Below are positions 3,864-39,431 of a DNA stretch of 44,388 nt, one piece after another; the stretch's first letter is position 1, and each line of letters opens with the position of its first letter. This DNA is from a phage. The stretch lies in sequence record PX136376.1, one strand, 5' to 3'. The notes under the pieces were generated by a model that saw nothing but the letters and a program-made list of their open reading frames with translations, made no database searches and was not told where the DNA came from. The position numbers and the translations under genes are program-made.

Positions 3864-3900
3864 TTAACTGAATAGTACCCTATTATATTGGTGTCTGCAA
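3864..3900 (-). promoter_or_regulatory. conserved promoter/operator element, class 1 copy 1 (overlapping divergent sigma70-like promoters)
   Basis: minus-strand reading TTGCAG-N17-TACTAT toward the DnaN-like gene; plus-strand reading TTAACT-N17-TATATT toward head morphogenesis gene; central palindrome TAATAG-ggta-CTATTC. Confidence 0.5.
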
Positions 3901-6077: not shown

Positions 6078-6108
6078 GAATAGTACCCTATTATATTGGG
6101 GTGTGCAA
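6078..6108 (-). promoter_or_regulatory. conserved promoter/operator element, class 1 copy 2
   Basis: GAATAGTACCCTATTATATTGGGGTGTGCAA, identical to copy at 14882-14912; minus-strand TTGCAC-N17-TACTAT upstream of peptide-lipoprotein pair. Confidence 0.5.
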
Positions 6109-14881: not shown

Positions 14882-14912
14882 GAATAGTACCCTATTATAT
14901 TGGGGTGTGCAA
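14882..14912 (-). promoter_or_regulatory. conserved promoter/operator element, class 1 copy 3
   Basis: minus-strand TTGCAC-N17-TACTAT upstream of the three-gene cassette; plus-strand TTACAT-N17-TATATT toward tail chaperone gene. Confidence 0.5.
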
Positions 14913-24916: not shown

Positions 24917-25052
24917 ACTCTTCTGATAACTTCTCCAGCACAAACGCCAGTTGCGCATTAGCGGCGTCTCTTTGCTGCCGTAGTCGTAGAACCTCTTCTT
25001 CCAGTTCCTTGATACGTTTTTGCAATGCTGGAATCGGGGCTATGATGTTCAT
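24915..25052 (-). CDS. small coiled-coil protein (45 aa)
   Basis: MNIIAPIPALQKRIKELEEEVLRLRQQRDAANAQLAFVLEKLSEE; start overlaps helicase stop (ATGA); below ORF-track cutoff. Confidence 0.35.
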   Translation of the reverse strand: MNIIAPIPALQKRIKELEEEVLRLRQQRDAANAQLAFVLEKLSEE

Positions 25053-26473
25053 TTCTTACCTCGTCTCTTCATGTAGTTAAGCAACTCTTCCTGTACCGAT
25101 TTCTTCTCGTCGGTACGCGCGGCAACAACCTCGTCCAGCGTGTCTTTAGCGACTATGTGATAAAGGAACACCGGGCGCTCGTGCCCAGCTTGTTTCTGGC
25201 GAACAGGGCCGATGCGCTCGACAACCTGCAAATAGTGCTCAAGATTCCAGCCTTGTGAAATAAACGCCAGATGATGGCCGCCGTCCTGTAAATTCAAACC
25301 ATGCCCGGCTGACGCAGGGTGTACGCATAAGATTTCTATTTCGCCGCGGTTCCACGCTTCCATCTGCTTATTACCCTTCGCGCCTTTGGAAAACGCCTGC
25401 GCCTGTGGGAATCGCTTAAGGATGCGCTCAAGTTCGTGCTTGAACTGATAGGCGACCAGCAACGGCGCGCCCTGCAACTCCTCCACAATTGACTCCAGCG
25501 CATCAAGTTTCGTGTCGTGCACTTTCTCCCATTCTTTGGTTGATTCGCCATCTGGCCCCGATACATACACGGCACCGGAGGCAATCTGTAGGCACTTCGA
25601 CGTCTTCGCCGCAGCGTTAGCCGCTTCAACTTCTCCGCTTTCCAGTTCCGCGAATAACTTCTCCTCCATATCGATGTACGCCTGACGTGCTTTCTTCGGC
25701 AGGTCGATTTCAACCGGCACAATAATCGGCGCTTCACACCCGAACCACTCGGCGGCGTCAATCGTGAGACTAATGTCCTTCATCTTCTGGTGGATTTCAG
25801 TATCCGCACCCGGGCGGGCGTGGTATTCGCGCGCCATAGCAGATTTGCCTTTCTGCACCGAGTTAAACCAGCGGTCGGTGAATGCCGTGTACGAAGAACC
25901 GAGGCGCTCGCCCGCGTCGATAAACCAGTTCTGTCCCCACAAGTCCTTGAGGCCGTTAGGCGATGGTGTACCTGTCAGGTTGATAAAACGCTTAACCTTT
26001 CCGAACGCCACTCTACTAAGCGCCTTCGCCCGCTTGCTGCCGCCTGAACGGCTGCGGAATGACTTCAGTTTCGTGCTTTCATCGGCAACGATAACGGTAA
26101 AAGGCCAGTCGTCTTTGCCGTAGTAGTCAATCAACCACTCTATTACCTCATAGTTCGTGCACACCACGTTAGCATCTGACTCCAGCGCCGCGATGCGGCG
26201 CTTCTCTGAACCGGTCGCGTCTACGACACGCAGACATGGGAAATTCCATTTAGTTTGTTCCGCCGGCCATGTGCCTGATGCAACGCGCAACGGGGCGAGG
26301 ATTAACACGCGGTCCTCTTCTGTAAGCTGCCCGTTGCGGAACAGTCGGTTTAATGTCCACAGTACGCTGCCAGTCTTCCCGGCGCCCATGCTCGCCCAAA
26401 TATTACAGCGATGGTGCCGCAACATGAACGAAGTCATTAGCTTCTGGTATTCGCGCCTTTGAAACTTACTCAT
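25049..26473 (-). CDS. superfamily-2 DNA helicase (DEAD/SNF2-like)
   Basis: Walker A GAGKTG, motif II VADEST, LTGTP motif; 474 aa. Confidence 0.8.
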   Translation of the reverse strand: MSKFQRREYQKLMTSFMLRHHRCNIWASMGAGKTGSVLWTLNRLFRNGQLTEEDRVLILAPLRVASGTWPAEQTKWNFPCLRVVDATGSEKRRIAALESDANVVCTNYEVIEWLIDYYGKDDWPFTVIVADESTKLKSFRSRSGGSKRAKALSRVAFGKVKRFINLTGTPSPNGLKDLWGQNWFIDAGERLGSSYTAFTDRWFNSVQKGKSAMAREYHARPGADTEIHQKMKDISLTIDAAEWFGCEAPIIVPVEIDLPKKARQAYIDMEEKLFAELESGEVEAANAAAKTSKCLQIASGAVYVSGPDGESTKEWEKVHDTKLDALESIVEELQGAPLLVAYQFKHELERILKRFPQAQAFSKGAKGNKQMEAWNRGEIEILCVHPASAGHGLNLQDGGHHLAFISQGWNLEHYLQVVERIGPVRQKQAGHERPVFLYHIVAKDTLDEVVAARTDEKKSVQEELLNYMKRRGKK

Positions 26474-27263
26474 TTACGGCCCCCATGAACGCCTTTATAA
26501 ATTCAGCGGCTACTTGCGGGACGATAGCATTGCCGTAACCGCGCAATCGTCCCACTCTTGCGGATACCCCATGAGTTGCCTCGCAAAATCCGCCTGGTAT
26601 GACTCTAGTTTCCTTATCTGCTCCATGGTTGGGTTTCCATGAATCCCATAAACATGAAGCCACATCTGGCGATAAAGAGTATCGTTCCTGAATTTTCCGT
26701 CCTTTCTGTAAAATGTCTTGCTGAGATCCCCGTAATCCTTCCATCCTCGCGCCGTTGGTGTCGCCCATCCTCGCGCCAAAGATGATTCTTTTCCTTTCCT
26801 GTGGAGAGCCGACGCTGCAAGCTGGCAATACTGACGCCCCGCAGGCGTAGCCTTTGTCTTCCAGGTTAAGGAATACAAAATCGAGCCAGTGCTTCCCAAT
26901 TGCTGCTGCAACCTGCTCTCCAAACAGCAATTCAGGCTTGCACTCTCTGATGAGCCTGAGAAATGCTGGGGCAAGGTGTCGATCGTCGTCAAATCCGAGA
27001 GACTTACCGGCAACGCTAAACGGCTGGCAAGGTGGTGATCCTGTCCAGAGTCGAGTGCTTTCTGGTATTCCTGCCAGCTGGAGTGCAAGGGGCCACCCTC
27101 CGATTCCGGCAAAGAAGTGACACTGTGTAAATCCTTCCAGGTCTGAAGGGGTGACTTCGGTGATTGATCGTTCATCGACATATCCGTAAGGAATTAGTTT
27201 ATTGTTAATTAATTCACGCAGCCACGCGGCTGCGCCTTTATCCCATTCGTTGTAATAGTTCAT
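26466..27263 (-). CDS. DNA (cytosine-5)-methyltransferase
   Basis: motif I FFAGIGG, motif IV PPCQPFS (catalytic Cys), ENV-like EQV, QERKR, C-terminal GNAIV; compact 265 aa. Confidence 0.8.
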   Translation of the reverse strand: MNYYNEWDKGAAAWLRELINNKLIPYGYVDERSITEVTPSDLEGFTQCHFFAGIGGWPLALQLAGIPESTRLWTGSPPCQPFSVAGKSLGFDDDRHLAPAFLRLIRECKPELLFGEQVAAAIGKHWLDFVFLNLEDKGYACGASVLPACSVGSPQERKRIIFGARMGDTNGARMEGLRGSQQDILQKGRKIQERYSLSPDVASCLWDSWKPNHGADKETRVIPGGFCEATHGVSARVGRLRGYGNAIVPQVAAEFIKAFMGAVNE

Positions 27264-27451
27264 TTCGCCACCAGCACCAGCTCTTTACGCCCGAACGCCG
27301 TAACGTTACCCGTTACATCTTCGATAACCAGTTTACCGTTCGACTCGACGAACACCGTATCAACGGCAACAGGACGACGGGTCTTAACGTTGAAAATCAT
27401 GTCGCCTGGTACGATGTCACGTGCTGGTTTGCGGTCATATTCGTGTTTCAT
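27260..27451 (-). CDS. hypothetical protein (63 aa)
   Basis: RBS aagga 8 nt before ATG; overlaps neighbours at both ends. Confidence 0.45.
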   Translation of the reverse strand: MKHEYDRKPARDIVPGDMIFNVKTRRPVAVDTVFVESNGKLVIEDVTGNVTAFGRKELVLVAK

Positions 27452-27767
27452 TTCTAAATTCCTTATATTGTTGGGGTATGTGCTTACTATAATAGTCTGC
27501 TATTAGGGTGTCAATCTGTTTTATCGAACCAACGACAAAAACATTTGCGCCACGTTTACGTATACGCTCGTGTTCCCGTAGCTGGTGCGGGTCTGGCTTA
27601 GTGTTTTCGTCTTTCTTCACCTCGACGAACCAGACGATGCCGCCGGGTAGAATTGCCAGCAGGTCAGGAGCGCCTGAACGTCCTTCGTAGGAAAGTTTAC
27701 GAACGAGGCCACCAATGGCCTCGAATCGCTCTTTTGCGTATTTCTGGATGCGGCCCTCTTTAGTCAT
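27435..27767 (-). CDS. VRR-NUC domain nuclease
   Basis: 110 aa; PDLLAIL...VWFVEVKK pattern consistent with VRR-NUC PD-(D/E)XK core (recalled). Confidence 0.6.
   Translation of the reverse strand: MTKEGRIQKYAKERFEAIGGLVRKLSYEGRSGAPDLLAILPGGIVWFVEVKKDENTKPDPHQLREHERIRKRGANVFVVGSIKQIDTLIADYYSKHIPQQYKEFRNETRI
27486..27514 (-). promoter_or_regulatory. class 2 promoter with palindromic operator (internal to VRR-NUC coding region)
   Basis: minus-strand TTGACA-N17-TATAGT with perfect palindrome TAATAG-tctg-CTATTA in spacer/-10. Confidence 0.45.
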
Positions 27768-27916
27768 GACCGCAGCATCCAGGTAAGGAAAACCCAGCCT
27801 AGAATGGCAACACCGGCAAACTGAAAGAACAGGCCGTAACAGAACATAGCAGCTATTCCCGCACCGAGTAACAGTGTGAGCATGGTTACTATGGTCCTAA
27901 ATACAAACTTTGTCAT
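27764..27916 (-). CDS. small membrane protein (50 aa, two predicted TM helices)
   Basis: MTKFVFRTIVTMLTLLLGAGIAAMFCYGLFFQFAGVAILGWVFLTWMLRS; ATGA overlaps at both ends. Confidence 0.4.
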   Translation of the reverse strand: MTKFVFRTIVTMLTLLLGAGIAAMFCYGLFFQFAGVAILGWVFLTWMLRS

Positions 27917-28002
27917 AATACACACCCCTCACGTTTCGTATGTTCAGTACCGCAGCGCGGACAGATTCGACAGTCTTCTTCATAAAACCAGTAGATTTTC
28001 AT
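27913..28002 (-). CDS. small Cys-rich peptide (29 aa)
   Basis: MKIYWFYEEDCRICPRCGTEHTKREGCVL; ATGA overlaps both neighbours. Confidence 0.3.
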   Translation of the reverse strand: MKIYWFYEEDCRICPRCGTEHTKREGCVL

Positions 28003-28130
28003 TCCAGCACCCACATATAAATTGCGATGAACATGCCCAATATGGCAACCATCATGCCGTATTGACCCTCGTGACAGTAGACACCGGCGGCAAATCCCGC
28101 CAGTACCGCGATAATCAGTTTACTTGGCAT
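27999..28130 (-). CDS. small membrane protein (43 aa)
   Basis: MPSKLIIAVLAGFAAGVYCHEGQYGMMVAILGMFIAIYMWVLE; RBS aaggag 9 nt upstream. Confidence 0.4.
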   Translation of the reverse strand: MPSKLIIAVLAGFAAGVYCHEGQYGMMVAILGMFIAIYMWVLE

Positions 28131-28815
28131 CTCTACATTCTCCTTCAGGCCACCTATTAGGAAAAGACGGTATATGTGAAACTTCTCTCGCCGCTTTTAT
28201 TCTTTTAATGGCGGGACCTATCTCCGTAACCATTTCAATGAATGTAAACCGGTGTCCTCTGGTAAGATTACATGTCTGACAACAAGAAACGCAGTTAGAT
28301 ACTATGTGCCCGCTTGTATTATCTATGCGGTCTACCCCGACTTTTGTAGTGCTTCCGCAATAATGGCATGGCTGTGATATTAGTTTAATAACGCTTTCCA
28401 GTGTTAAATCGCAGATAAGCCCTTTTCCTGAATCTGCTCTTTTGTATCCTAACAAAAGCGCGTACGCCCGCGTCCTTTGGTCCTTATTCACCAGTTCCCT
28501 GCGTTGCTTGTTGAGACACTCCCGGCAATCTTTCCTGATATGAGAGCCATTACTTTTATTTCCTTTCCTGAAGTTTTCCTCTGTTAAAGGTTTTACCTCC
28601 CCACACTTTCTGCATTTAACAGGCTTCCCAGTGAAAACATACCAAGGGCTTTCTCGTCTGGATTTACCTTGTAATTTAAGTTTTTCGTCATACTTTTCCT
28701 TCCTGTTAGCATTTACACACTCTTTACACCAGCGTTGCAGCCCGAGGCGCGTTGACTTTGAAAAATACTCTGTAGTCGCCGGTTTATCTTCGCCGCATCT
28801 TGAACACTTTTTCAT
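28120..28815 (-). CDS. HNH endonuclease with N-terminal zinc-ribbon repeats
   Basis: repeated CxxC...CxxC units; C-terminal HNH-like CHYCG...DRIDN...GH...N; ATG at 28815 with GGAG RBS (ORF-track frame opens at 28827). Confidence 0.65.
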   Translation of the reverse strand: MKKCSRCGEDKPATTEYFSKSTRLGLQRWCKECVNANRKEKYDEKLKLQGKSRRESPWYVFTGKPVKCRKCGEVKPLTEENFRKGNKSNGSHIRKDCRECLNKQRRELVNKDQRTRAYALLLGYKRADSGKGLICDLTLESVIKLISQPCHYCGSTTKVGVDRIDNTSGHIVSNCVSCCQTCNLTRGHRFTFIEMVTEIGPAIKRIKAAREVSHIPSFPNRWPEGECRDAK

Positions 28816-28892
28816 TAATAACTCCAAAAAAAAATACCGACATAGCCATTATATCGGTATTTACATTTTCTACAACGTATTTCCTAAATCTA

Positions 28893-31073
28893 CTACTTGG
28901 CGTATCTGTACATTTCGCTACCTTCTGCTACAAGAGGGAACCCCTCCGCCCACTCCGGTAATTCGCACATCAACCGCTCAAGCTCTGCAACATTGTATTC
29001 TGGCGTATCTGGTGTTTCGCAGATAATTTCGTCGTGTACGTGAAGCACAATAGGATAGCCGTTTGCTTCAACGTTCAGCAGTGCATTGGCCAGCAAATCA
29101 CGGCACAGCGCCTGAGTACAGTTTTCCACGAGTTTACCAGAGTAGGTGTACTGGAAGCCCCACTGACGGGTTAACTGGTTCTCCCCCTGGTACTTGATGC
29201 GTACGTTAGTAGACACTTTTCCATCTTCGTCTGTTTCTTTCGACACGCTTAACCCGACGCCCGGATAAGACATAACGCGACCCGACGGCAACGTCATGCG
29301 CAACCACCAGCCGGCGACTTTGTTGCCGTTGTTGTCTGTCTCTACGTTGCGCGAAAACTTAACCCCCCTAGGCCCCGCGGTGAACTCTTTACCTGGATTG
29401 CGGATAGCGGCCATAGCTGCGTCTTCAATATCTCGCCAGAAAGCTACTGTTTCAGGGTGTGACTCTCGCCACATACGCTTGATAGCGTCACAGGTACGCC
29501 ACACTTTCTTATCAAGAATATACGATGGTCGGTCATCCTTCTCCCCGGGTCGCGGCGGTCGCTTGGCTTCCTGAATACGTGCCCATTCATAGCCGCGTGC
29601 AGTAGCCGCCCAGATGTGGTCCGGGAAAGTACCGTCCATTGTTTTTGACATATCAACAAGGTCAAGTCCGAGGTTCTTAGCAAACTGAACGAAAGCGCCA
29701 ACACCACCAGCGTAGCCGAGGCCAAGCTCGCAGGCTTTACCAATCTGGCGCAAGTCTTTGCGTTCCTTCTTAATGTAATCCGGCTCCATGCCGAACATCT
29801 TACCCGCGGTTACACAGTAAATGTCCAGCCCGGCGCGGAACGTATCTAGCGCGGTTTCTTCGCCTGCCAGCCACGCAAGCCCCCGACCTTCAACGTTAGA
29901 GTAATCGGCGACGACAAACTTTTTTCCGGCTTCCGGGATAATGCAGCTACGCACCGTCGATGCCGTTAGCTTAGCGACATCGAAACGGCGATGCGCGCGG
30001 CCCTTAAGTAACGCTGAAATACCTTTATCCAGTTCATCATCGTGATAGTACCCACGCGCGAGGTTCTGCGGCTGAAATCCTTTACCGGCAAATCGTAATG
30101 TACGCTTGGCTCCGCCGTACTGAATGCAACCACGACGGCGGTCGTCCGACGAGCGCCCTAACAGCAGCGGGTTATATTTCGTTGACGCTGTGGACGCGGC
30201 CCCGAGGCGCATTTCGATAATCGTGCGTGCGTCGTCCGGTAAATCATCATCCGCCAACAGGTCGTTAAGCGTAGACTTCTGCGCGTTGTGGATGCGGTGC
30301 GCTGGTGCAAGTTCACGCAGAATCGGCAGGAAGTCTTTACCAGTAAGCGAGCCGCCGTATTTGCGCTGTGCTTCTTCCTGTAGCTGGGCCTTGTGTTTTT
30401 CCACGGCTTCAATCGCGGCTTCCGCCAGCGTCACATCAACCTTAAACCCACGGTCGTTAATCAACTGGTCCAGTTCCAGTACACGGTCTTCGAACTCGGA
30501 GTTACCCCAACGCGGCAGCTTATGGAAGACTTCACGCATCGCAGTGATGTCGCTCACGGCGTACCTGATGAACATCGCCCACTCGTCAGGGTGAGTTTCT
30601 GCGGTGTAGCGGCGGATTTTGTAGTTCTTCGGCGTCGGTTTAGAGAAACGCTTAATCAGAGCCTTGCCGCGTTTATCTTTCGCGTTGTCTGCAGACACGC
30701 CCAGCACTTCGCACAGCGCATCAAGAGAACCCGGCAGCGCGTGACGGAACGCCCAAATCATAGTATCAATGGTGTTACTTACCGGAATATCAAAGTCCCA
30801 GCAGTGTTTCATGATTAGGCGATCGAAAAGTCCACCGTTGTGCCACACCATCTTGATGCGGCTGTTGGGCTTAACAAGGCGGCGCAGTGCGCGGTGTAAA
30901 TCCCCCGGCATGTCGCTGCCGTCGGTGCAATCCCATACCCGCACAGGTTCGTCGTCAAAAGCATATGTACAGATAAGCACTTCGGTTGACGGGTGTTCGG
31001 CGTAAGCGTAAGAACCGACTTTCTTCAAATCGGCTTCGGAGAATGTTTCAAAGTCCAGGTATAAGTAGCTCAT
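28893..31073 (-). CDS. family A DNA polymerase with 3'-5' exonuclease domain
   Basis: exo motif YLDFETFS; Pol A motif A VVADYSNVEGR; motif B RQIGKACELGLGYAGG; ATG at 31073 with RBS aaggaaaag (ORF-track frame opens at 31127). Confidence 0.9.
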   Translation of the reverse strand: MSYLYLDFETFSEADLKKVGSYAYAEHPSTEVLICTYAFDDEPVRVWDCTDGSDMPGDLHRALRRLVKPNSRIKMVWHNGGLFDRLIMKHCWDFDIPVSNTIDTMIWAFRHALPGSLDALCEVLGVSADNAKDKRGKALIKRFSKPTPKNYKIRRYTAETHPDEWAMFIRYAVSDITAMREVFHKLPRWGNSEFEDRVLELDQLINDRGFKVDVTLAEAAIEAVEKHKAQLQEEAQRKYGGSLTGKDFLPILRELAPAHRIHNAQKSTLNDLLADDDLPDDARTIIEMRLGAASTASTKYNPLLLGRSSDDRRRGCIQYGGAKRTLRFAGKGFQPQNLARGYYHDDELDKGISALLKGRAHRRFDVAKLTASTVRSCIIPEAGKKFVVADYSNVEGRGLAWLAGEETALDTFRAGLDIYCVTAGKMFGMEPDYIKKERKDLRQIGKACELGLGYAGGVGAFVQFAKNLGLDLVDMSKTMDGTFPDHIWAATARGYEWARIQEAKRPPRPGEKDDRPSYILDKKVWRTCDAIKRMWRESHPETVAFWRDIEDAAMAAIRNPGKEFTAGPRGVKFSRNVETDNNGNKVAGWWLRMTLPSGRVMSYPGVGLSVSKETDEDGKVSTNVRIKYQGENQLTRQWGFQYTYSGKLVENCTQALCRDLLANALLNVEANGYPIVLHVHDEIICETPDTPEYNVAELERLMCELPEWAEGFPLVAEGSEMYRYAK

Positions 31074-31245
31074 TTCTTTTTCCTTAAATCCAGTGCCTTC
31101 GTTTCGCTTAATCTTATTTTCATACAATCACGGCAAATCCACACATGCCTGTACCCGGCCCGGTGCCCATCCGCGTACCACGGAAGCGGTTTCATATAGC
31201 GATAAACGTGCTTACAGAAAAACATTATTTTCGACCCCTAGTAAA

Positions 31246-31265
31246 AAGGCCCAATGAAGGGCCTT
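31246..31265 (-). terminator. rho-independent terminator (family copy 4)
   Basis: AAGGCCC-AATGAA-GGGCCTT with T-tract on minus strand, between SSB-like gene and polymerase gene. Confidence 0.55.
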
Positions 31266-31284
31266 AGTTAAATTGATTCAGATA

Positions 31285-31911
31285 TTAGCGGCGGCGACGT
31301 TCGCGGCGCGGTGCTTCATCTTCTTCGTCGTCTTCCAGGTCATTGACGCTCGCAGCGACTTTAGAACCGCCGAACGCTTTGCCTTCGCCAACGTATTTAA
31401 TCGCCAGCAGGTTAACGCCGAGGACTTTGTATTTCTGGCTGAACCAGATTTCAACGCTTACGTTAGCTAAGCATCCGCTGTAAACCTGTTCACCTTCAAT
31501 CTGTTCGCCGTCTACGTTGAAGTCCTGCTCTACCTGAGTCTCACCTTTTTTAGAGGTTACAATCAGCGGCTGTTTCTGTGCCTTCGCTTTGAAGTAGAAG
31601 CCTTCCGGGAAGTCTTCAAACGGATTGTCGCGCTCGGCAATGTCTTTAATCGCGCATTTATCCATGTGCTTACCTTCACCGTAGTTGGACTTCATCCATT
31701 TCTCGGCAGCGGCTGCGCCTAACGCTTCTTCAACTACAGCGTAAACGGTGTCGTAGAGTGCATCGATTTGAGCATGGTCAGACGGCAGGATAATAGTCGC
31801 GCTGTACTGGCCTTTAGTGATTGAGCCATCATCGTTTTCACGGTCTTTTTCGCGTTCGAATACGTTAACCCAAGCAGTGTTTACTTTACGCAGATTCAGT
31901 TTAATACCCAT
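31285..31911 (-). CDS. putative ssDNA-binding protein
   Basis: 208 aa with acidic C-terminal tail (DLEDDEEDE); position between nuclease and polymerase; tentative. Confidence 0.4.
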   Translation of the reverse strand: MGIKLNLRKVNTAWVNVFEREKDRENDDGSITKGQYSATIILPSDHAQIDALYDTVYAVVEEALGAAAAEKWMKSNYGEGKHMDKCAIKDIAERDNPFEDFPEGFYFKAKAQKQPLIVTSKKGETQVEQDFNVDGEQIEGEQVYSGCLANVSVEIWFSQKYKVLGVNLLAIKYVGEGKAFGGSKVAASVNDLEDDEEDEAPRRERRRR

Positions 31912-31970
31912 CGTGATTTCTCGCTTTTAAGTTTCGTTTACTCCGGGAAGCTGCCCGGTCAGTGATTAGA

Positions 31971-31999
31971 ACTATAATAGCTAACTATTCAGGTGTCAA
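31971..31999 (-). promoter_or_regulatory. class 2 promoter with palindromic operator
   Basis: minus-strand TTGACA-N17-TATAGT; palindrome TAATAG-ctaa-CTATTC; ~55 nt upstream of SSB-like gene start. Confidence 0.5.
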
Positions 32000-32188
32000 A
32001 TAAAATTTCGCAATACGGACTATGTTCTCGAAATCATTCATATCAACGGGTTCGAATTCATCCTCCACATGGTTGTATCGCACCATCGTGCCGTTCAGGA
32101 ACGTAAACGATTCCGAATGGATATAACCGCCCCAGCGCCATATCATCACAAAATCTTTATCTGTGGGCATTTCATTTACTTGAATCAT
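31985..32188 (-). CDS. hypothetical protein (67 aa)
   Basis: ORF overlapping upstream nuclease stop by 4 nt. Confidence 0.45.
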   Translation of the reverse strand: MIQVNEMPTDKDFVMIWRWGGYIHSESFTFLNGTMVRYNHVEDEFEPVDMNDFENIVRIAKFYLTPE

Positions 32189-33426
32189 TCTAAATCCTCC
32201 TCTGTTACCCTATTCCACTCAGGACGTTTGTCGTCTGCCGTTGCAACACATGGTGCGCCTGGCTTACGGGTAATGAAGTCTTTCAGTTCTTCTTCCGGTA
32301 TGACTTTAACCGCTTCGGTTGGCGTCATGAGCACTTGCTTCATTAGCGCTATGCCATACTTGCCAGCCACTTTCTCTGCGTCTTTCCACGCACGATTGCC
32401 CGGGCGGCCCTCAACCAGCTTGTACCCCGGCACTTTCTTACCGGAATGCAACGCGGTGGCCATCGCTTTCTCAACCTTGTCGATGTGCTGGCGCAACAAC
32501 GGCAACTTCTCATATTCAGCTACGAGTTGCTCCGGCGTCAGTTCCAGCACAAAGTCGTCTTCCAGTTCTTCCGCCAGTACAGAATTAACCGTCTTTGTAC
32601 GCGCAGCGCATTGTTCAGAGAACCGGCACCACTGACAACCATCTACCGATGGCTTGAAGTCCGACGCTTTCAGGTTCTTCTTGCCACGGAAATACGCATC
32701 AAGCGCTAACAGCGCGCGTTTCTGTGCGAACTTAGCGAACAGTTCCAGTCCTTCAACCGAGATGTCCCACTCTGTCGCGCCCCCAGCGTAAGGCTGGAAG
32801 ATGACCAGACGAACGGTTGTTATGTTATAACGTCTCTTGAGTCGACGATAAACACCGAGAGCGTAAAGCATAAGCTGCTTGTTTTCTTTCGCTTCGACGC
32901 GATGCCGCCCGGTTTTCAGGTCGCCGATAATGAGCATGTGCTCGTCGGTGTTTGCCAGTTCCTGGACAGCAACGAGGTCAGCGGTTCCGAACGTCTCAAC
33001 GCCTTCATACCCCGGATGCAATACCTCAGTAAGATTGACACGCATTTCCAGCTTGGCGTAAGTCGCTACATCGATAATCGCTTTGCAGTAGTCAGTGTAC
33101 TTGCGCACTTGCTCAATCATGTCAGCCGTAATCAGTACCGCGCCCTTCATCGGGCTGATTAGCGCCTTAATCTGGCCTTTACCCTCGTCCAGCACATAAG
33201 CACCAACTTCACGTTCTAACGGCAGCGCAGTGCCACGGATATGAGCGTTGAGATGGACCTCGGCTATGGTGTGACACGCGGTCCCCGTAACAGCAGCTTT
33301 ACCGGACGTGTTAGGAATATCTTTTTCACAGGCCAGTGATGCACTGCACGCCAGCCACTTTTTGGCGCCAGACGGCGACAGTAAGGCGTGCACATCGTTA
33401 TTGCCACCGCGTTCTTTTAGAATCAT
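32185..33426 (-). CDS. PD-(D/E)XK nuclease with Fe-S-type cysteine cluster (Cas4/RecB-like exonuclease)
   Basis: 413 aa; IGDLK core; Cys pairs near N-terminus (LACSASLAC) and C-terminus (CQWCRFSEQC). Confidence 0.6.
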   Translation of the reverse strand: MILKERGGNNDVHALLSPSGAKKWLACSASLACEKDIPNTSGKAAVTGTACHTIAEVHLNAHIRGTALPLEREVGAYVLDEGKGQIKALISPMKGAVLITADMIEQVRKYTDYCKAIIDVATYAKLEMRVNLTEVLHPGYEGVETFGTADLVAVQELANTDEHMLIIGDLKTGRHRVEAKENKQLMLYALGVYRRLKRRYNITTVRLVIFQPYAGGATEWDISVEGLELFAKFAQKRALLALDAYFRGKKNLKASDFKPSVDGCQWCRFSEQCAARTKTVNSVLAEELEDDFVLELTPEQLVAEYEKLPLLRQHIDKVEKAMATALHSGKKVPGYKLVEGRPGNRAWKDAEKVAGKYGIALMKQVLMTPTEAVKVIPEEELKDFITRKPGAPCVATADDKRPEWNRVTEEDLE

Positions 33427-33785
33427 CGTAAACTCTCCAAATACAAGTTTAATGCCTGTAGCTGTTCTTCTGTGGGAATGAAAGAATCATCGCGACGTAA
33501 GTCGCTTAACTGTTGCAGCATTCCTGCGAACTTACGTCTTGCGTCAACAGCGACAATGTGATGCTTTTCACTTTTATATATTAAGGTTTTCGGGTAATCC
33601 TCAATCCTGCCAGACGATTTATTCACGCGGAGTGCGCGATCTTCATGCGCAATGTGTATGTACTTTTTGCCGTTTTGTAGCACAGTAGCTACACCGCTGT
33701 TCTTTCTGCGGTCGCCGACGGTGTAAACTTTGTCGCCGCTGCGCAAATTAAGCCACCATTTATCAGTCATACCCTGTTCTCCCAC
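33423..33785 (-). CDS. hypothetical protein (120 aa)
   Basis: ORF in leftward operon; no motif recognised. Confidence 0.45.
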   Translation of the reverse strand: MGEQGMTDKWWLNLRSGDKVYTVGDRRKNSGVATVLQNGKKYIHIAHEDRALRVNKSSGRIEDYPKTLIYKSEKHHIVAVDARRKFAGMLQQLSDLRRDDSFIPTEEQLQALNLYLESLR

Positions 33786-34039
33786 TGGTCAATTAAATGC
33801 CGTGTCTTGTGGTCGCAATGTAAGGCCCATCCATACATCGACTCGAAGACATAAAAGTCAGGCTTGGCGAAAGTTGTGCGCTTAATCTGTGACACGTGAC
33901 GGCCTATATCTTTAGGCCGTGGTACTTTTCCTAAGTACGCCATCTCTTCCATCTGGTGCGCACCGGACGGAGCACGCAATAGCCATAGCGCTTCTGTGTT
34001 ATCCCGCCTGTCGACGGCTCGGTAGAGTTGGTAAATCAT
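33767..34039 (-). CDS. hypothetical protein (90 aa)
   Basis: ORF in leftward operon. Confidence 0.45.
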   Translation of the reverse strand: MIYQLYRAVDRRDNTEALWLLRAPSGAHQMEEMAYLGKVPRPKDIGRHVSQIKRTTFAKPDFYVFESMYGWALHCDHKTRHLIDQWENRV

Positions 34040-34082
34040 AATTCCGACCCTCAGTTAAAGCGGCCCGAAGGCCGCGAGATAG

Positions 34083-34583
34083 TTATTCTTCTTCGAAATA
34101 CTTGTTCTTGATTGCTGTCAGGCGTTCCAGGTATTCAGCCAGGTCTTCGTCTTTAATCGCTGCAATCTTCATTTTCTTACCTGTGAACTCTTCCAGCAGT
34201 TCATCAGAATCATCGCACGCGGCATCGCTCGGACCTTCGTTAATTGCATCGTCGATAGCCTGAATCTGGTCGCGCAGAGACTTATAGTCTACTTCTTCTT
34301 TCTCTTCTTCCGGCTCTGGCGTCGTTTCCTCTACTTTAGCTTTACGCGGCTTGCGTTTTGGCTTCTCTTCCTCCGCCGGTTTAGTGTCAACTACGTCTTC
34401 ACCTTCAACCGGGATTTCTTTTGTTGCTTCTTCAGCGCACTCAGCTACCGCTTCTTTGGTGTACGATACCGTCTCTACTTCCAGCGGCGTGGCAACCTGA
34501 ACAACTTGTTTCGCACTGTTCGCGGCAATCAGTTCGTGCGCAACTACGAAACGTTCCAGTAATACTAAGAATTTCTCTAACAT
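34083..34583 (-). CDS. highly acidic protein (166 aa), candidate DNA mimic
   Basis: long Glu/Asp-rich segments (EEEKPKRKPRKAKVEETTPEPEEEKEE; DDSDELLEEF); second gene after early leftward promoter. Confidence 0.5.
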   Translation of the reverse strand: MLEKFLVLLERFVVAHELIAANSAKQVVQVATPLEVETVSYTKEAVAECAEEATKEIPVEGEDVVDTKPAEEEKPKRKPRKAKVEETTPEPEEEKEEVDYKSLRDQIQAIDDAINEGPSDAACDDSDELLEEFTGKKMKIAAIKDEDLAEYLERLTAIKNKYFEEE

Positions 34584-34607
34584 TATTTATTCTCCTGTTT
34601 ATTTGGG

Positions 34608-34835
34608 CTACTCGCCGTCGCCTTCTGTAAGGCTATCGTCTATTAATTCAAATTTACCGTTTGGGTGTTGAATAGCTTCTTGCCCGCAATGGTCGCAGAC
34701 AACAAGTTTATCGAACCCATCAAACTCATCCCCTACTACGCAAGAAAGTACAAATTTATGTTTTGTGCACACTTCTTGCGGAGCGCCGAAAATTGCTCGA
34801 AAACCTTTAGCTATGGCCCCAGTGATTGTGTTCAT
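34608..34835 (-). CDS. small zinc-ribbon-like protein (75 aa)
   Basis: Cys pattern C-x8-C...C-x2-C; first gene downstream of class 2 promoter. Confidence 0.45.
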   Translation of the reverse strand: MNTITGAIAKGFRAIFGAPQEVCTKHKFVLSCVVGDEFDGFDKLVVCDHCGQEAIQHPNGKFELIDDSLTEGDGE

Positions 34836-34863
34836 ATCTGCCCCTCTCGTTTGGTATGGGCTA

Positions 34864-34893
34864 ACTATAATAGCGAACTATTCACATGTCAAT
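34864..34893 (-). promoter_or_regulatory. class 2 promoter with palindromic operator O1
   Basis: minus-strand TTGACA-N17-TATAGT; palindrome TAATAG-cgaa-CTATTC. Confidence 0.5.
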
Positions 34894-34911
34894 GGGCTTT
34901 TCTAAAATAAT

Positions 34912-34927
34912 TAATATGGTACTATTC
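34912..34927. promoter_or_regulatory. second operator-like site O2
   Basis: TAATAT-ggta-CTATTC, one mismatch from O1 half-site; ~30 bp upstream of the HTH gene start. Confidence 0.4.
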
Positions 34928-34956
34928 ACATATCAACTGACTAAGGAGTAATTGAC

Positions 34957-35172
34957 ATGCAACCATCTGAACTAGGCATCCGTGTAGAACAACGCCGCAA
35001 AGAACTCGGCATCTCCCAGCGCCGTTTGGCGGCCCTGACCGGCGTTTCCCAGGGCGCGATTAACCAACTGGCACTTGGAGTAACTCAGGACGTCCGCCCG
35101 GCAACGCTGTTCAAACTGGCGGAAGTTCTGGAAGTAGACGCCAAGTGGCTGGCGTTAGGTGAAGGGGCTTAA
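34957..35172 (+). CDS. XRE-family HTH transcriptional regulator (Cro/CI-like)
   Basis: 71 aa; classic HTH LGISQRRLAALTGVSQGAINQLALG; RBS aaggag; only rightward gene inside the leftward module. Confidence 0.8.
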   Translation: MQPSELGIRVEQRRKELGISQRRLAALTGVSQGAINQLALGVTQDVRPATLFKLAEVLEVDAKWLALGEGA

Positions 35173-35190
35173 AGCCCCTTTCTTTTTACC
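35162..35190 (+). terminator. rho-independent terminator
   Basis: AGGGGCTT-AAAGCCCCT hairpin followed by TTCTTTTT. Confidence 0.6.
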
Positions 35191-37448
35191 TATTCCAAAT
35201 CCTCCTCTGTCACCACCAGCATCTCATTTGGTTCGTATAGTGTCTTCGGCCTTAATCTATCCCCTATTCTTTCGGGTATACGATATGTTCTCGGTACTAC
35301 TTCGCCGTTAGCATCGCAACCAAGCATTAGTTCTCCATCTTTCAACATTTTATCAAGATGGGTGTTAGTCACAGAGAAGTCACCGGAACGAGCCACTATC
35401 TGCTGCTGAGTAAAACCGCGACCTGTGTCATCTGACTGTTGCAGGTCTTCCAGTGCCGAAAGTATTGACTCCTTCCTTACTTCATCCCTGCCGCGTTTAA
35501 CTTCTTCCTTTACTTTTTGCTTACCTTCTTTCGTCAACCCTTCTTCCCGCTCTTTCTCCTCGTCAGTTTTGAACGGCTCGAAACCCCACGGCATCAACAC
35601 AAGCGCCTTGTGTGGTTCAGGCAGGTCCAGGTTTACGATTGTGCCGTATTCCTCTGTGCTACCCAGGAACTCAACCGCTCGGTATTCTTTAGGCGGCGGC
35701 GCTTCACGGAACTGTACCGACTCCAGCACCATGCCAACCGTCTTCTGCTGAGGCCCGTGCTTGAATTTCGAGTGATATACGTTTATCTGACGGTCGGTTG
35801 CACGTTCGATTGTCAGTTCCACGTCAACACCCGCATACAGCGCCCCACTGCCGCGTGCTTTCTTTCCACCCTTCGGCGTATGGTGGACAACGCCTACTGC
35901 GGCTTTAGTTGCATCGCGTACTTCTTTCAGAATGGCGATAACTTTACCCATGCCGATTGCTGTTGATGAACTGTTCTCGTCGAACTTATCAATCGTCAGG
36001 GCCAGCGTCTGGTTAAGGGTGTCGAAGGCAACCATGCCAATAGGTTCATCCCCTGCGGTTTCGCGCATCCTGCGGATTAGAGCTGGAATTTTTTTATCAC
36101 CATGCGTAGCGAGTATTTCGCCCATATCGATGACATGTACATAATCTTTACCTTCCTCGCCATATTTAGCCGCGAGTGCATCAATACGTGTTCGTGTAGC
36201 TGCACCACCCTCGCCGTCAATATAGAAATGGTGGCAACGTTGGGTGTCAGCCCCCGCAAACCGGTACCCGGCGGCGCTCAGGTACATCATCCCCAGCGTA
36301 TAGAATGATTTGTACGTGCCGGATTCCCCGACAATATCCCAGATACAATCCGACGGCATGTACCCCTCAACGACGAAATCAGCCTTTACCGGTTCTGGTA
36401 ACTCGTCCTCCTCTGAGTCCTCGTCGTCTTCCAGGTCGTCGAGGCTGCATGAGACAGATTCACGCGCCCCCCAACCGATGGCCTCTGCGACTTCACTGAA
36501 CGGCAGCCCGGTCGCATCGCACGCGTACTTCCACACCTCTTTCGGTGACAGGCCTTCTGTCGCCGTAATGTCTGTGTCGTGAATCATGGTTACGTTTGGC
36601 GCTTCATACCCCTCGCGCGGGAAGCACAGCAGGAAGTCGTCCGGGCGCGGTGTCGGGTCGCTGTAGTTTTCGGCATGTTCCGGTGTGGCTGGCATCTTAA
36701 GGCCGCGCGGCGTCATGACGCCGCCGTACTCAAACGCCAGTGCTTCAAACGCGTCTGTAAACGCGGTGCGCAGTTCTTCCGGTATCTGGTAATCCGATGC
36801 GCTGCTAACGTCAACGGCTGGGATGCCTTCCAGTAACTCGTTCGGGTCGATCAGGTCGTTGCGGCGCGACCAGATAACGGTAGCGCCGACCGGCGGCAGG
36901 TACATCGGCTGCGACAGAGTGAACCCGCTGCGGTCCGCACCCATGCCTTTGAAGAAGTGCTCCAGCAACCCATGACGAACACGGATGATGTCACCACCCT
37001 CCACCGGACGGGCCAGTGGCATTACGACGCGAAAGCGCGGTGACTCATCAGTATGTGATGCCGTGGTATAGAGGCACATGGCCCAGCGGCTGCGCTTAAC
37101 CAGGCGCACCGCTTCCTGATACTCTTCCGGTGTTGTGCTGTCGAAATCCAGATAGGCCAGCGACGATTTGCTTACAGACGCATCGCAGCGGTAGAAAAAA
37201 CCTTTACGCGCTTGCTTAAAGTCTCCAGTTTCCGGGTCTTTTACGGTGCTGTGCGTTGAGTCGCACGCGGCGGTGATATAACCGGGCGCGGTCTTAGGGT
37301 TAATCCCGTCGCGAACGGCATCGAGCGGCTGGATTAACTCTTTCAGGTCGTCCAGTGTTGCCGTGTGTGCGGTTCTGACATTTATATCCTTTTTTCCCGC
37401 CCGCGCGTTGCGGCGTGACCACGAGTAGGATAAAATTACATCGGACAT
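35190..37448 (-). CDS. putative replicative primase-helicase
   Basis: 752 aa; Walker A GESGTYKS in C-terminal RecA-fold region; large N-terminal domain of primase-like size; function inferred. Confidence 0.6.
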   Translation of the reverse strand: MSDVILSYSWSRRNARAGKKDINVRTAHTATLDDLKELIQPLDAVRDGINPKTAPGYITAACDSTHSTVKDPETGDFKQARKGFFYRCDASVSKSSLAYLDFDSTTPEEYQEAVRLVKRSRWAMCLYTTASHTDESPRFRVVMPLARPVEGGDIIRVRHGLLEHFFKGMGADRSGFTLSQPMYLPPVGATVIWSRRNDLIDPNELLEGIPAVDVSSASDYQIPEELRTAFTDAFEALAFEYGGVMTPRGLKMPATPEHAENYSDPTPRPDDFLLCFPREGYEAPNVTMIHDTDITATEGLSPKEVWKYACDATGLPFSEVAEAIGWGARESVSCSLDDLEDDEDSEEDELPEPVKADFVVEGYMPSDCIWDIVGESGTYKSFYTLGMMYLSAAGYRFAGADTQRCHHFYIDGEGGAATRTRIDALAAKYGEEGKDYVHVIDMGEILATHGDKKIPALIRRMRETAGDEPIGMVAFDTLNQTLALTIDKFDENSSSTAIGMGKVIAILKEVRDATKAAVGVVHHTPKGGKKARGSGALYAGVDVELTIERATDRQINVYHSKFKHGPQQKTVGMVLESVQFREAPPPKEYRAVEFLGSTEEYGTIVNLDLPEPHKALVLMPWGFEPFKTDEEKEREEGLTKEGKQKVKEEVKRGRDEVRKESILSALEDLQQSDDTGRGFTQQQIVARSGDFSVTNTHLDKMLKDGELMLGCDANGEVVPRTYRIPERIGDRLRPKTLYEPNEMLVVTEEDLE

Positions 37449-37505
37449 GTTGTATTTCCTTCAGCAAGTAATTTGGCCTCGGCGCTCTAACGCTGGGGCT
37501 TTCTT

Positions 37506-37739
37506 TTATTCCAGGTCTTCTAAAGTGGCTGTCACCCCACGAACTTCGGCAACAGCACTATATCTCCCGCCAACATTTTTCACGACACCAGATTTAACCA
37601 GCACCTTCAACGACCCTTCAATGATGGCGGAACTATAGTACCTAAAATAACTGCGGCGCAAGTCCATAACGCTGCACGACCCTTTTTTACGTGTTACCGA
37701 AACAACCGCCGTAAATACGCGTGACTGGAACTCGGTCAT
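37506..37739 (-). CDS. hypothetical protein (77 aa)
   Basis: start overlaps stop of upstream HTH gene (ATGA). Confidence 0.45.
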   Translation of the reverse strand: MTEFQSRVFTAVVSVTRKKGSCSVMDLRRSYFRYYSSAIIEGSLKVLVKSGVVKNVGGRYSAVAEVRGVTATLEDLE

Positions 37740-37906
37740 TTTACATTCTCCTTAATCCACGCTTCTACTTTCTCCGGGTCGAACGTACCTGGCTGGCGAC
37801 GGCCCATAATGCGAACACAACAATCCGGGAACTTACCGCTCTTTAACCAGTTATTCAGCGTGCGGCGGGTAACCCCGATACGCTCAGCTACTTCATTCTG
37901 TGTCAT
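37736..37906 (-). CDS. small HTH DNA-binding protein (AlpA/Xis-like fold, 56 aa)
   Basis: VAERIGVTRRTLNNWLKSGKFP helix-turn-helix; RBS gaggg 9 nt upstream; below ORF-track cutoff. Confidence 0.5.
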   Translation of the reverse strand: MTQNEVAERIGVTRRTLNNWLKSGKFPDCCVRIMGRRQPGTFDPEKVEAWIKENVK

Positions 37907-37938
37907 TCTAAAGCCCTCATTATCAGTTAACGAAACCG

Positions 37939-37967
37939 AGTATACATTGCGAATAATGGGAAATCAA
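37939..37967 (-). promoter_or_regulatory. putative sigma70-like promoter for leftward operon
   Basis: minus-strand TTGATT-N17-TATACT ~30 nt upstream of small HTH gene. Confidence 0.4.
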
Positions 37968-38337
37968 ACATAATTGCACCTATTGACATTATGAAAATCT
38001 TCGTTTAAGATGCTTCTATATCTTAGTTACTTTGATTCCTGTTCACCTTGTAAGAATGTTTAACCCGTGCGTCAAGCAAAGGGTTAAACACAGGCTTACT
38101 GAACATGAGAATTATCGTAACTTTCCTTCCTAAGTATCTCCGGTTGCCCTGGGCAAGCTCTATTCTCATCGGCGGCATATCTCTTAAGTATCTGATTTTC
38201 TTAATGTGCCGTAGATTCGCAACCGTAAAAATGTAACGATTATTGGGCAGGCTTAGGGCCTGCCCTTTAGTTACCAAGTAATAAGAATAAAGGCACAACC
38301 CTACCTGAAGAATCACAACGGCAACGTAACTAATCTC

Positions 38338-38368
38338 TTGCACACCCCAATATAATAGGATACTATTC
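38338..38368 (+). promoter_or_regulatory. conserved promoter/operator element, class 1 copy 4 (rightward)
   Basis: TTGCAC-N17-TACTAT with palindrome TAATAG-gata-CTATTC; 30 nt upstream of RBS gaggag and gene at 38401. Confidence 0.5.
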
Positions 38369-38400
38369 ACTTATTGAAACAAGACAGAGGAGTGATGGTT

Positions 38401-38586
38401 ATGTTTAAGAAGGGTCAGTTGGTGAGAACGAGATATTCTGGTTACTACGGAGTTATTAAGCGCGTTTCAGATAAAGTTAACGGGTTGTATTACGTTACTA
38501 ATACTGATCGGGCTCTCGGTCTATGGTACAGAGAACGCGAGCTAATACTCATCGGCAACAATTTTAAATTAAAAGGGGCGAAGTGA
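38401..38586 (+). CDS. hypothetical early protein (61 aa)
   Basis: RBS agaggag 8 nt before ATG. Confidence 0.5.
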   Translation: MFKKGQLVRTRYSGYYGVIKRVSDKVNGLYYVTNTDRALGLWYRERELILIGNNFKLKGAK

Positions 38587-38801
38587 TGGAAGAATTAATT
38601 TGTATTGAATCCCGCCAGGATGTGCAGGATTGGTTTGTGAAAGGTAACAAATATTCGTCGGGAGTATATTACGACGGCCGTCGATACGTTTTAGATGAAG
38701 ACGGTGATGAATGGGATTTAGAGGACACTGTGGGTGAGACTTTAACCGTTAGTTTTCTTCAATGTTGTTTCCGCATCATTCACAACGGCATCGAATCATG
38801 A
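38586..38801 (+). CDS. hypothetical early protein (71 aa, acidic)
   Basis: TGATG stop-start overlap; RBS aagggg. Confidence 0.45.
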   Translation: MEELICIESRQDVQDWFVKGNKYSSGVYYDGRRYVLDEDGDEWDLEDTVGETLTVSFLQCCFRIIHNGIES

Positions 38802-38901
38802 TGCTCGTGCCGACGACTCTGAGGGAGGTTGCCGTGAATAATTACCCGTTTATTTTAATTGTCAGCGCTGTTTATGAGGCGCACGCGTTGTGGGGGTTGG
38901 T

Positions 38902-39096
38902 ATGAGTCCGTATAACCGGTTTCGTCTGGAGCGTCTACGTCACGGATTAAGTAACGCTAAATTAGCTCTCGATATATGGGAAAGTACGCCGTATTTTTCC
39001 TCGAAGGCATGGTTTGTCGCTCGCGCTACAGCGTCCGTTCAGTACCGGGAATACAAGTTAAACAGTTTCCTTAAACACCATGGGGCTAAGTTATGA
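38902..39096 (+). CDS. hypothetical protein (64 aa)
   Basis: ATG at 38902 within ORF opening at 38890. Confidence 0.4.
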   Translation: MSPYNRFRLERLRHGLSNAKLALDIWESTPYFSSKAWFVARATASVQYREYKLNSFLKHHGAKL

Positions 39097-39254
39097 GAGA
39101 AGCATTCGAACGGTGGGCCGTCGTCGATGGTCTGCCGGTTAATAAGGGTTCGAAGAAAGAGTACCTGAACGTTAAGACGCGTCTTGCGTGGCGGGCGTGG
39201 AAAGCTGGTGCGCAATATCGGGCCGGTGTAACAGGCGGTGTAACAGGTCAATAG
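39093..39254 (+). CDS. hypothetical protein (53 aa)
   Basis: ATGA overlap with upstream gene; below ORF-track cutoff. Confidence 0.35.
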   Translation: MREAFERWAVVDGLPVNKGSKKEYLNVKTRLAWRAWKAGAQYRAGVTGGVTGQ

Positions 39255-39276
39255 GTTACTATTTGTCTTTGTGTCT

Positions 39277-39402: not shown

Positions 39403-39431
39403 TTGCACACTAGGATAGAATAGACTACTAT
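39403..39431 (+). promoter_or_regulatory. class 1-like promoter (diverged copy 5)
   Basis: TTGCAC-N17-TACTAT; operator-like AATAG-acta-CTATTC; 30 nt upstream of gene at 39463. Confidence 0.45.

Follow-up and report, generated by a model that had tools for sequence, protein, structure and literature searches.

A putative operator dyad in host-type promoters of a Kagunavirus-like phage, with a Cro-like protein as its candidate repressor

Introduction

Positions 31971-31999 on the minus strand of sequence record PX136376.1, the whole of which is referred to here as the window (44,388 base pairs, bp), hold a consensus-type promoter, TTGACA-N17-TATAGT, whose spacer contains an inverted repeat, AATAG-N4-CTATT (the dyad). 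The locus raises the question of what such a dyad does between the two hexamers of a promoter and which protein, if any, would bind it. A first-pass annotation, made from the sequence alone, had listed three promoters of this kind and proposed that a shared palindromic operator places replication genes, morons, and early genes under a single regulator. The comparative analysis presented here suggests that the dyad is an operator in promoters of the host sigma-70 type and that a small protein resembling Cro of phage 434 (HTH_3) is its repressor, a reading that is held with moderate confidence.

The window is the complete genome of a Kagunavirus-like siphophage of E. coli that belongs to the subfamily Guernseyvirinae. 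Its region 30000-36000 matched 478 phage records in a megablast search, the top ones being Escherichia phages KMB35 and Bas70-76 with 93-98% identity, and its layout is that of the annotated relative Bas74, with structural genes on the plus strand, a leftward replication/recombination block at ~25-37.9 kilobases (kb), and rightward small genes and lysis genes from ~38.4 kb. Neither a CI/S24-peptidase repressor nor an integrase is annotated in Bas74 or was found in Pfam scans of small open reading frames (ORFs), and the phage is virulent. The comparison set comprised 36 IMG/VR loci around the SSB gene, 46 further stretches with the exact 29-mer promoter pattern, and GenBank genomes of Kagunavirus, Jerseyvirus, Cornellvirus, and Serratia phage Otaku; Serratia phage eta has only the structural module in common. 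An Rfam scan of the whole window gave no match, so the promoter and dyad sites are not known RNA elements.

In phage Jersey (NC_021777.1), sigma-70 promoters have been annotated on the basis of consensus similarity; they comprise the orthologue of the promoter at 31971 (TTGACA CCTT AATAG TTAA CTATT ATAGT) and three more, and a fully palindromic TAATAGTTAACTATTA of this phage carries such a promoter label. This annotation gives the hexamers only, without an operator or regulator, and the orthologues of the other two promoters described below carry no annotation in the stretch viewed. In the Kagunavirus fBC-Eco01, a close relative, a PHIRE consensus, tgAATAGTa-ccTATTat-T, was reported in seven copies and ascribed to an RNA polymerase of the phage's own (PMC9825357). 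That paper describes the motif found here, but the dyad symmetry and the overlap with sigma-70 hexamers went unremarked in it. Thus, the promoters, through one orthologue annotated in phage Jersey, and the repeated motif (PMC9825357) are already known; the operator reading and the assignment of a regulator, both of them computational proposals, are new.

Three Near-Consensus Promoters Contain the Dyad in Their Spacers

A search of the whole window for TTGACA-N17-TATAGT with at most one mismatch found three sites and no more, each an exact match on the minus strand (class 2; P27486, P31971, and P34864; Table 1), against 0.15 expected, and none of 100 shuffled sequences reached three. These are the sites of the first-pass annotation, except that the third had been drawn one base too long, to 34893. 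They are also the three highest sigma-70 scores (11/12) in 25000-44388. Promoter-like sites as a whole are not above chance in 25-44 kb (25 against 19.1 ± 4.3), and only the three 11/12 sites and the motif-bearing sites stand out in this region. Start codons with a ribosome-binding site lie 29-60 nucleotides (nt) downstream of the class-2 sites, which, to judge from these features, are probably strong promoters for the host sigma-70 RNA polymerase.

The class-2 spacers read CCCT-AATAG-CAGA-CTAT, CCTG-AATAG-TTAG-CTAT, and TGTG-AATAG-TTCG-CTAT in P27486, P31971, and P34864, respectively. The dyad occupies positions -25 to -12, and its final T is shared with the -10 hexamer. The first-pass palindrome, TAATAG-N4-CTATT(A/C), holds for all three sites as far as the AATAG/CTATT arms are concerned, but arms of 6 bp (TAATAG/CTATTA) are present only in P27486, the other two sites reading GAATAG...CTATTA, and the range 27496-27505 given as perfect covers only part of the 16-mer at 27490-27505. 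The three paralogues have only 21 constrained positions in common, so recent duplication does not explain their identity. Two other readings of these sites were discarded: a TATAAT on the opposite strand was rejected as a divergent promoter because no usable -35 accompanies it, and MerR-type activation from a spacer operator is excluded because the spacer has the optimal 17 bp, not 19-20 bp, so that together with an 11/12 match no activator is needed.

By their positions, the class-2 promoters would split the leftward replication/recombination genes into separately started transcription units. P27486 lies in the C-terminal tail of a nuclease ORF (27435-27767), past the matched domain (amino acids, aa, 28-80) and 35 nt upstream of the next ATG; with a start expected near 27479, it drives a 63-aa ORF (27260-27451), a methyltransferase, and a helicase. 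The proposal of an internal promoter within a coding sequence is borne out by this site, although the name VRR-NUC given to the surrounding ORF is less secure: Pfam VRR_NUC is matched below threshold (18.4 bits against a cutoff of 23.8, E 0.0024), and the ORF matches PHROG 93 "endonuclease" instead (1.6e-32). The stop codon of a 67-aa ORF (31985-32188) is overlapped by P31971, whose predicted start lies near 31964 and which drives the Gp2.5-like SSB gene (31285-31911) together with the DNA polymerase and genes further downstream. P34864, which is divergent from the HTH_3 gene, drives a 75-aa ORF (34608-34835), a 166-aa ORF, and further genes on to the exonuclease.

Two neighbours of these promoters may be mentioned here. 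Just downstream of P31971, the SSB leader contains a CCGGG-N6-CCCGG hairpin (31940-31960, minus strand), the sequence of which is kept even in Cornellvirus and Otaku with differing loops; its folding was no better than that of shuffled sequence (z = -0.17), and it could be a translational or stability element of the SSB mRNA. The 75-aa ORF downstream of P34864 (minus strand) has ~89% nucleotide identity with T7-like Kayfunavirus podophages and is found in only ~7 related loci, a patchy distribution that, with the Kayfunavirus match, points to a horizontally mobile small gene.

The Arms Are Conserved Independently of the Hexamers

The main alignments of relatives were anchored on flanking sequence instead of the motif, and they contain alignment gaps. 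In ~40 relatives from two genera, the -35 hexamer, both arms, and the -10 hexamer are invariant or nearly so, and the positions that vary are the central N4, the N4 beside the -35, and the flanks. Counted per promoter, 20-44 distinct orthologous sequences show little or no change in the hexamers and contain 5-8 different dyad centres; in the 32 distinct sequences of the P27486 orthologues, CTATTATAGT is invariant and the centre is variable. At the SSB promoter, the mean entropy is 0.03 bits in the -35, 0.04 in the left arm, 0.78 in the centre, 0.05 in the right arm, 0.11 in the -10, and 1.26 in the 30 nt upstream, figures that come from motif-selected sites and are hence biased in a way that the anchor-based alignments are not. 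The architecture is kept in Jerseyvirus, for example in TTGACA AGTT AATAG TACT CTATT ATATT. Within IMG/VR, the exact 29-mer pattern is confined to contigs of 41-45 kb plus a handful of short fragments, and those examined all belong to this phage group. Sequence upstream of the SSB promoter is unalignable among relatives and similarity starts exactly at TTGACA (~32000), which makes this promoter a mosaic junction. As judged from these alignments, constraint on the arms is independent of that on the RNA polymerase hexamers, and the pattern is that of the footprint of a bound protein.

The Dyad Recurs in Different Registers

Across the window, AATAG-N4-CTATT was found at 12 sites with at most one mismatch (1.12 expected) and at nine sites exactly (~0.01 expected), eight of the nine lying inside promoter-like sites. 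In addition to the class-2 promoters, five promoters of the form TTGCAC-N17-TACTAT (class 1), which drive morons and rightward small genes, contain exact dyads (Table 1), in agreement with the earlier claim that the operator is common to both classes. In class 1, the dyad spans -19 to -6 and overlaps the -10, that is, 6 bp further downstream than in class 2. Read on the strand opposite to transcription, the class-2 sites give ACTATAATAGnnnACTATTCA, the extended motif that is seen forward in class 1; the element has therefore been inverted and shifted by 6 bp between the two classes. A third register, -22 to -9, occurs in a Jerseyvirus, and on the plus strand of the window, the promoters at 6175-6203 and 42439-42467 each place a one-mismatch dyad (AATAG-TTGA-CTxxT) over the -35. 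That the dyad sequence stays constant while its register shifts argues for a separate DNA-binding protein, since contacts with RNA polymerase would not behave in this way.

Some of these sites have features of their own. The plus-strand promoter at 6170-6203 reads TTGACT-N17-TAAGCT with AATAG-TTGA-CTTTT, and that at 42434-42467 reads TTGACT-N17-TATATT with ACTAG-TTGA-CTATT; the two may represent a third, late-gene class with weak operators, and an inverted arrangement, AACTATTC|GAATAGTT, is also present at 6163-6178. Opposite the class-1 promoter at 14884, the other strand carries GTTACA-N17-TATATT in a class-2-like arrangement. In one Jerseyvirus, a dyad (15638-15651), at -22 to -9, lies between face-to-face promoters, with TTGACG and TTGCAT each 7 nt off. 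The dyads at 14883-14896 of the window and 15638-15651 of this Jerseyvirus look like face-to-face promoter pairs with one shared operator, and these pairs sit at the boundary of leftward morons and rightward tail genes.

A Cro-Like Protein Is the Candidate Repressor

Divergent from P34864 lies a plus-strand gene for a 71-aa protein of the HTH_3 (XRE/Cro-type) family. The protein has the length of 434 Cro and aligns with it over its full length (PDB 1zug/2cro/3cro, residues 6-68, E 8.5e-6; 434 repressor, 1.1e-5). An intrinsic terminator (35161-35181) follows the gene, which thus forms a monocistronic unit flanked by two copies of the dyad: O1, within P34864, and O2, which has one mismatch and overlaps the promoter of the HTH_3 gene itself, either TGgTACTAT (an extended -10) or TTCACA-N16-TAAAAT at 34881-34908. 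The two are 44 bp apart, centre to centre, and O2 was found in at least 25 related loci. In Bas74, the gene (33202-33414) is 100% conserved and unannotated, a short minus-strand ORF (33217-33312) being listed in GenBank instead. When HTH_3 was used as the query in a word-indexed protein search, nothing but close relatives came back, on contigs of 41-45 kb. HTH_3 occurs in each of the five lineages examined (Kagunavirus, Jerseyvirus, Cornellvirus, Otaku, and the IMG/VR lineage L139), and no other recognisable DNA binder was found to be common to them all.

The sequence of the arms changes among these lineages together with the protein. In those with the recognition helix GVSQ (S-Q), namely Kagunavirus, Jerseyvirus, and Otaku, exact AATAG-N4-CTATT was counted 9, 5, 5, and 1 times and dyads with GTATT arms were absent; in those with G(V/M)TQ (T-Q), AATAG-N4-CTATT was absent and 2-3 exact dyads with GTATT arms were present, all expectations being at most 0.12. 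Thus, Cornellvirus (vB_STM-ZS and CECAV_044) lacks AATAG-N4-CTATT and has ATTAG-N4-GTAT(T/A) at 4-5 promoter sites, including both divergent promoters that flank HTH_3, with three and two exact copies of ATTAG-N4-GTATT. In L139, a symmetric AATAC-N4-GTATT occurs in two exact copies, at both promoters flanking HTH_3, and here both arms have changed relative to AATAG/CTATT in a compensating manner. Otaku retains an exact class-2 SSB promoter (TTGACA GCTG AATAG AATA CTAT TAAATT) and one class-1 site. Over the five lineages, the first residue of the recognition helix tracks the arms, Ser going with AATAG/CTATT and Thr with GTATT. This co-variation is the best available argument for HTH_3, and the comparative data favour the Cro-like protein over HTH_17, the second candidate, as the putative regulator.

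Given such a repressor, a simple circuit may be drawn. On entry of the phage DNA, the host RNA polymerase would fire the class-2 and class-1 promoters. As the Cro-like dimer accumulates, it would occupy 14-bp operators within or across core promoter elements and lower initiation by steric exclusion of RNA polymerase. HTH_3 would limit its own synthesis via the weaker O2 and would lower or buffer the output of every early and middle promoter, in a Cro-only circuit of a virulent phage. In this scheme, we infer where transcription starts, that HTH_3 binds, and in which direction and when it regulates. In an RNA-seq time course of the Kagunavirus K1B4, a gene with a helix-turn-helix (HTH) domain was one of the four genes that peaked earliest, ahead of the replication genes (PMC12645636). 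The HTH gene was not specified in that study and cannot be mapped to HTH_3 or HTH_17, and no start sites were reported (PMC12645636); the order of expression is compatible with the Cro-like model.

A single regulator, as had been proposed from the dyad common to both classes, may serve all dyad promoters of the window, an arrangement that we infer from the sequences; however, the HTH_3-flanking promoters of Otaku, with a different spacer motif, suggest that relatives may use more than one.

Several points weigh against HTH_3 as the repressor of the dyad. In Otaku, only two promoters still have the dyad, and the divergent pair on either side of HTH_3 (11385-11500) carries GTT(C)GATTGCT in its spacers without any dyad; this motif may be a second, lineage-specific operator. 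The Cornellvirus element is no true palindrome (ATTAG against AATAC). HTH_3 of Kagunavirus and Jerseyvirus is only 48% identical despite an identical operator core, and HTH_17 is 89-91% identical between the same genera. The co-variation rests on ~5 non-independent lineages, with variant patterns defined after the data had been seen, and the entropy figures for the SSB promoter have the selection bias already described. The many small early ORFs without a recognisable domain could encode the true binder. Finally, no start-site mapping or binding study for Guernseyvirinae was found in the literature.

Likeness to Known Operator Systems

The operators of phage 434 are 14 bp long (ACAA-N6-TTGT), and both 434 Cro and 434 repressor bind 14-bp dyads in which the outer bases are conserved and the centre is variable. 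The element described here resembles the sites of 434 Cro in its 14-bp length, its mirror-image conserved outer bases, and its variable, presumably uncontacted centre, and also in that the operators overlap core promoter elements and one of them covers the regulator's own promoter. It differs in the arm sequence and in having arms of 5 bp around a centre of 4 bp. Moreover, there is no tandem OR1-OR3 array; instead, single operators are spread over at least nine promoters, with the two near the HTH_3 gene 44 bp apart. Nor is a CI partner or integrase annotated in the relative Bas74, the phage being virulent. The system is thus not a 434-type immunity switch, as both the tandem OR array and a CI/lysogeny partner are missing.

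Arc of phage P22 offers a second comparison: at Pant, its operator lies between the -35 and the -10, and a ribbon-helix-helix tetramer binds a 21-bp site at a single locus. As at Pant, the operator described here lies inside the spacer of a strong near-consensus promoter, where a bound repressor would compete with RNA polymerase, and face-to-face overlapping promoters have one operator region (14883 in the window and 15638 in Jerseyvirus). Arc differs from the candidate here, which would act as an HTH dimer, and the Pfam scans gave no match to a ribbon-helix-helix domain.

A third likeness concerns the cassettes as units of exchange. In phages of the T4 type, promoter cassettes mediate the shuffling of genes; Arbiol and colleagues reportedly described such promoter-stem-loop (PeSL) cassettes in 2010. 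Similarly, near-identical 32-bp class-1 cassettes precede different morons in the window (3323-3844, 5610-6052, and 14529-14855), so that near-identical early-promoter cassettes stand before variable accessory genes and mosaic junctions coincide with them. In contrast to PeSL, no stem-loop is associated with these cassettes, and a role in recombination would be by analogy.

Alternative Explanations for the Dyad

The alternative that survives best, although it is unlikely, is that the dyad is an operator bound by another phage protein, be it HTH_17, a NinH-like product (43864-44124), or an unannotated small early protein such as a ribbon-helix-helix protein. HTH_17 (excisionase/AlpA-like, 56 aa) is attractive in its distribution, being restricted to Kagunavirus and Jerseyvirus, the two genera in which the dyad regulon is largest, and its high conservation between them matches the identical operator core; the dyad-free flanks of HTH_3 in Otaku fit the same view. 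However, HTH_17 was not detected in the Cornellvirus sequence examined, in the non-structural region of Otaku (18000-39857), or in the 12.7-kb stretch of L139, and yet this region of Otaku has the exact class-2 SSB promoter with its dyad and Cornellvirus and L139 keep dyad variants. It is for this persistence that HTH_17 was downgraded. There is also no dyad near its predicted promoter (37967-37939), and no PDB homologue of HTH_17 was found. Short HTH_17/Xis-like proteins usually bind direct repeats as monomers, which counts against it as well. The NinH-like match is below threshold. Pfam scans of 20 other small ORFs revealed no DNA-binding domain, 17 of the 20 giving nothing apart from two domains with an unknown or unrelated function; a ribbon-helix-helix binder was rejected as a candidate because no Pfam match to one occurred among these ORFs, and most of the small ORFs tested having no Pfam domain at all leaves room for unrecognised DNA binders.

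It is rather improbable that no dedicated regulator exists and that the arms belong to a promoter/leader cassette, either tuning RNA polymerase (through the spacer or an extended -10) or providing short homology for moron-shuffling recombination, with the identity of the copies due to descent and gene conversion. This explanation would account for class-1 copies that are near-identical over ~32 bp, for the AAACGAGAGGAG leader common to class-1 and class-2 cassettes, for the coincidence of mosaic boundaries with the promoter, and for the overlap of the right arm with the -10 in both classes. It does not account for the left arm, which in class 2 (-25 to -21) is invariant while its neighbours vary, although sigma-70 makes no base-specific contacts there. 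Mirror-image arms, their compensated change in L139 (AATAC/GTATT), the three or more registers that the dyad takes with respect to the hexamers, and the lack of similarity among class-2 paralogues outside the constrained positions also speak against it.

There is very little to recommend a transcription factor or nucleoid protein of the enterobacterial (Enterobacterales) host. The motif is common to phages of E. coli, Salmonella, and Serratia, and the trp operator, ACTAG-N4-CTAGT, has a similar 5-N4-5 geometry; however, Cornellvirus and Jerseyvirus both infect Salmonella and yet have different arms, the arm changes track a phage protein, and to our knowledge the dyad matches no host factor motif. 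A promoter for a phage-encoded RNA polymerase, the label given to seven such sites in fBC-Eco01 (PMC9825357), can practically be dismissed, as none of the 81, 59, and 75 features annotated in Bas74, vB_STM-ZS, and Jersey, respectively, is an RNA polymerase gene, the dyad copies are embedded in well-spaced sigma-70 -35/-10 pairs, and PHIRE detects repeated motifs only.

Other Dyad Sites and Neighbouring Units

The coordinates of the promoters, dyads, and candidate regulator genes are listed in Table 1.

Table 1. Promoters, dyads, and candidate regulator genes located in the window.
Feature	Position	Strand	Details
P27486 (class 2)	27486..27514	-	-35 TTGACA 27514-27509; -10 TATAGT 27491-27486; dyad TAATAG-CAGA-CTATTA 27490-27505
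P31971 (P_ssb; class 2)	31971..31999	-	-35 31999-31994; dyad AATAGTTAGCTATT 31976-31989; -10 31976-31971
P34864 (class 2)	34864..34892	-	-35 34892-34887; dyad O1 AATAGTTCGCTATT 34869-34882; -10 34869-34864
Dyad O2	34913..34926	+	AATATGGTACTATT (1 mismatch); overlaps HTH_3 gene promoter
HTH_3 (XRE/Cro-type) gene	34957..35172	+	71 aa; proposed cognate repressor; Pfam HTH_3 3.9e-13
HTH_17 (excisionase/AlpA-like) gene	37736..37906	-	56 aa; rival candidate regulator; Pfam HTH_17 2.1e-7
Class-1 promoter, TTGCAG-N17-TACTAT	3872..3900	-	dyad 3871-3884; drives RusA-like moron 3323-3844
Class-1 promoter, TTGCAC-N17-TACTAT	6080..6108	-	dyad 6079-6092; drives 33-aa membrane peptide ORF (5951-6052) and 114-aa lipoprotein-like ORF (5610-5954)
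Class-1 promoter	14884..14912	-	dyad 14883-14896; drives 108-aa ORF 14529-14855
Class-1 promoter	38338..38366	+	dyad 38354-38367; heads rightward small-gene block
Class-1 promoter	39403..39431	+	dyad 39419-39432
Orphan exact dyad	39250..39263	+	AATAGGTTACTATT; no convincing -10; two direct GGTGTAACAGG repeats before

The orphan dyad is followed by a strong hairpin, ACGCTGCT-N4-AGCAGCGT (region 39222-39300), in an arrangement that is kept in relatives; in Jerseyvirus, a hairpin with a T-run comes before the orphan dyad. In the interval that separates the HTH_17 gene from the rightward class-1 promoter, the plus strand at 37983-38270 has a promoter, TTGACA-N17-TAAGAT (10/12), the orthologue of which is annotated in phage Jersey, and ~230 nt on a good hairpin-plus-T terminator (38245-38265). 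No plus-strand ORF of at least 50 aa lies between this promoter and the terminator, and the stretch has no Rfam match; it could be a small RNA or tiny-peptide unit.

Implications for Guernseyvirinae

One consequence concerns annotation: the published label of phage RNA polymerase promoters is corrected to promoters of the host type. The design itself, a Cro-like repressor with operators overlapping core promoters, is familiar, and the use of these results lies mainly in phage engineering and annotation. Kagunaviruses and jerseyviruses are common candidates for therapy and biocontrol and have been proposed as a small chassis for phage engineering. The elements described here would yield strong, compact, and probably repressible promoter parts, as well as a family of diverged candidate repressor-operator pairs that may be orthogonal.

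It is also possible, though this broader view is offered tentatively, that a Cro homologue without CI has become the global transcription governor of a virulent subfamily. Such a protein would control nine or more promoters by way of a single type of 14-bp operator, which would occur in three registers or more, in both orientations, and in face-to-face promoter pairs sharing one copy of it. The arms and the first residue of the recognition helix (Ser with ...G/C..., Thr with ...C/G...) would have co-evolved into natural orthogonal pairs, and the cassettes would serve as moron-exchange junctions. At the level of the single phage, early and replication genes that depend on a few consensus host-type promoters with one short putative operator would provide a workable transcription map.

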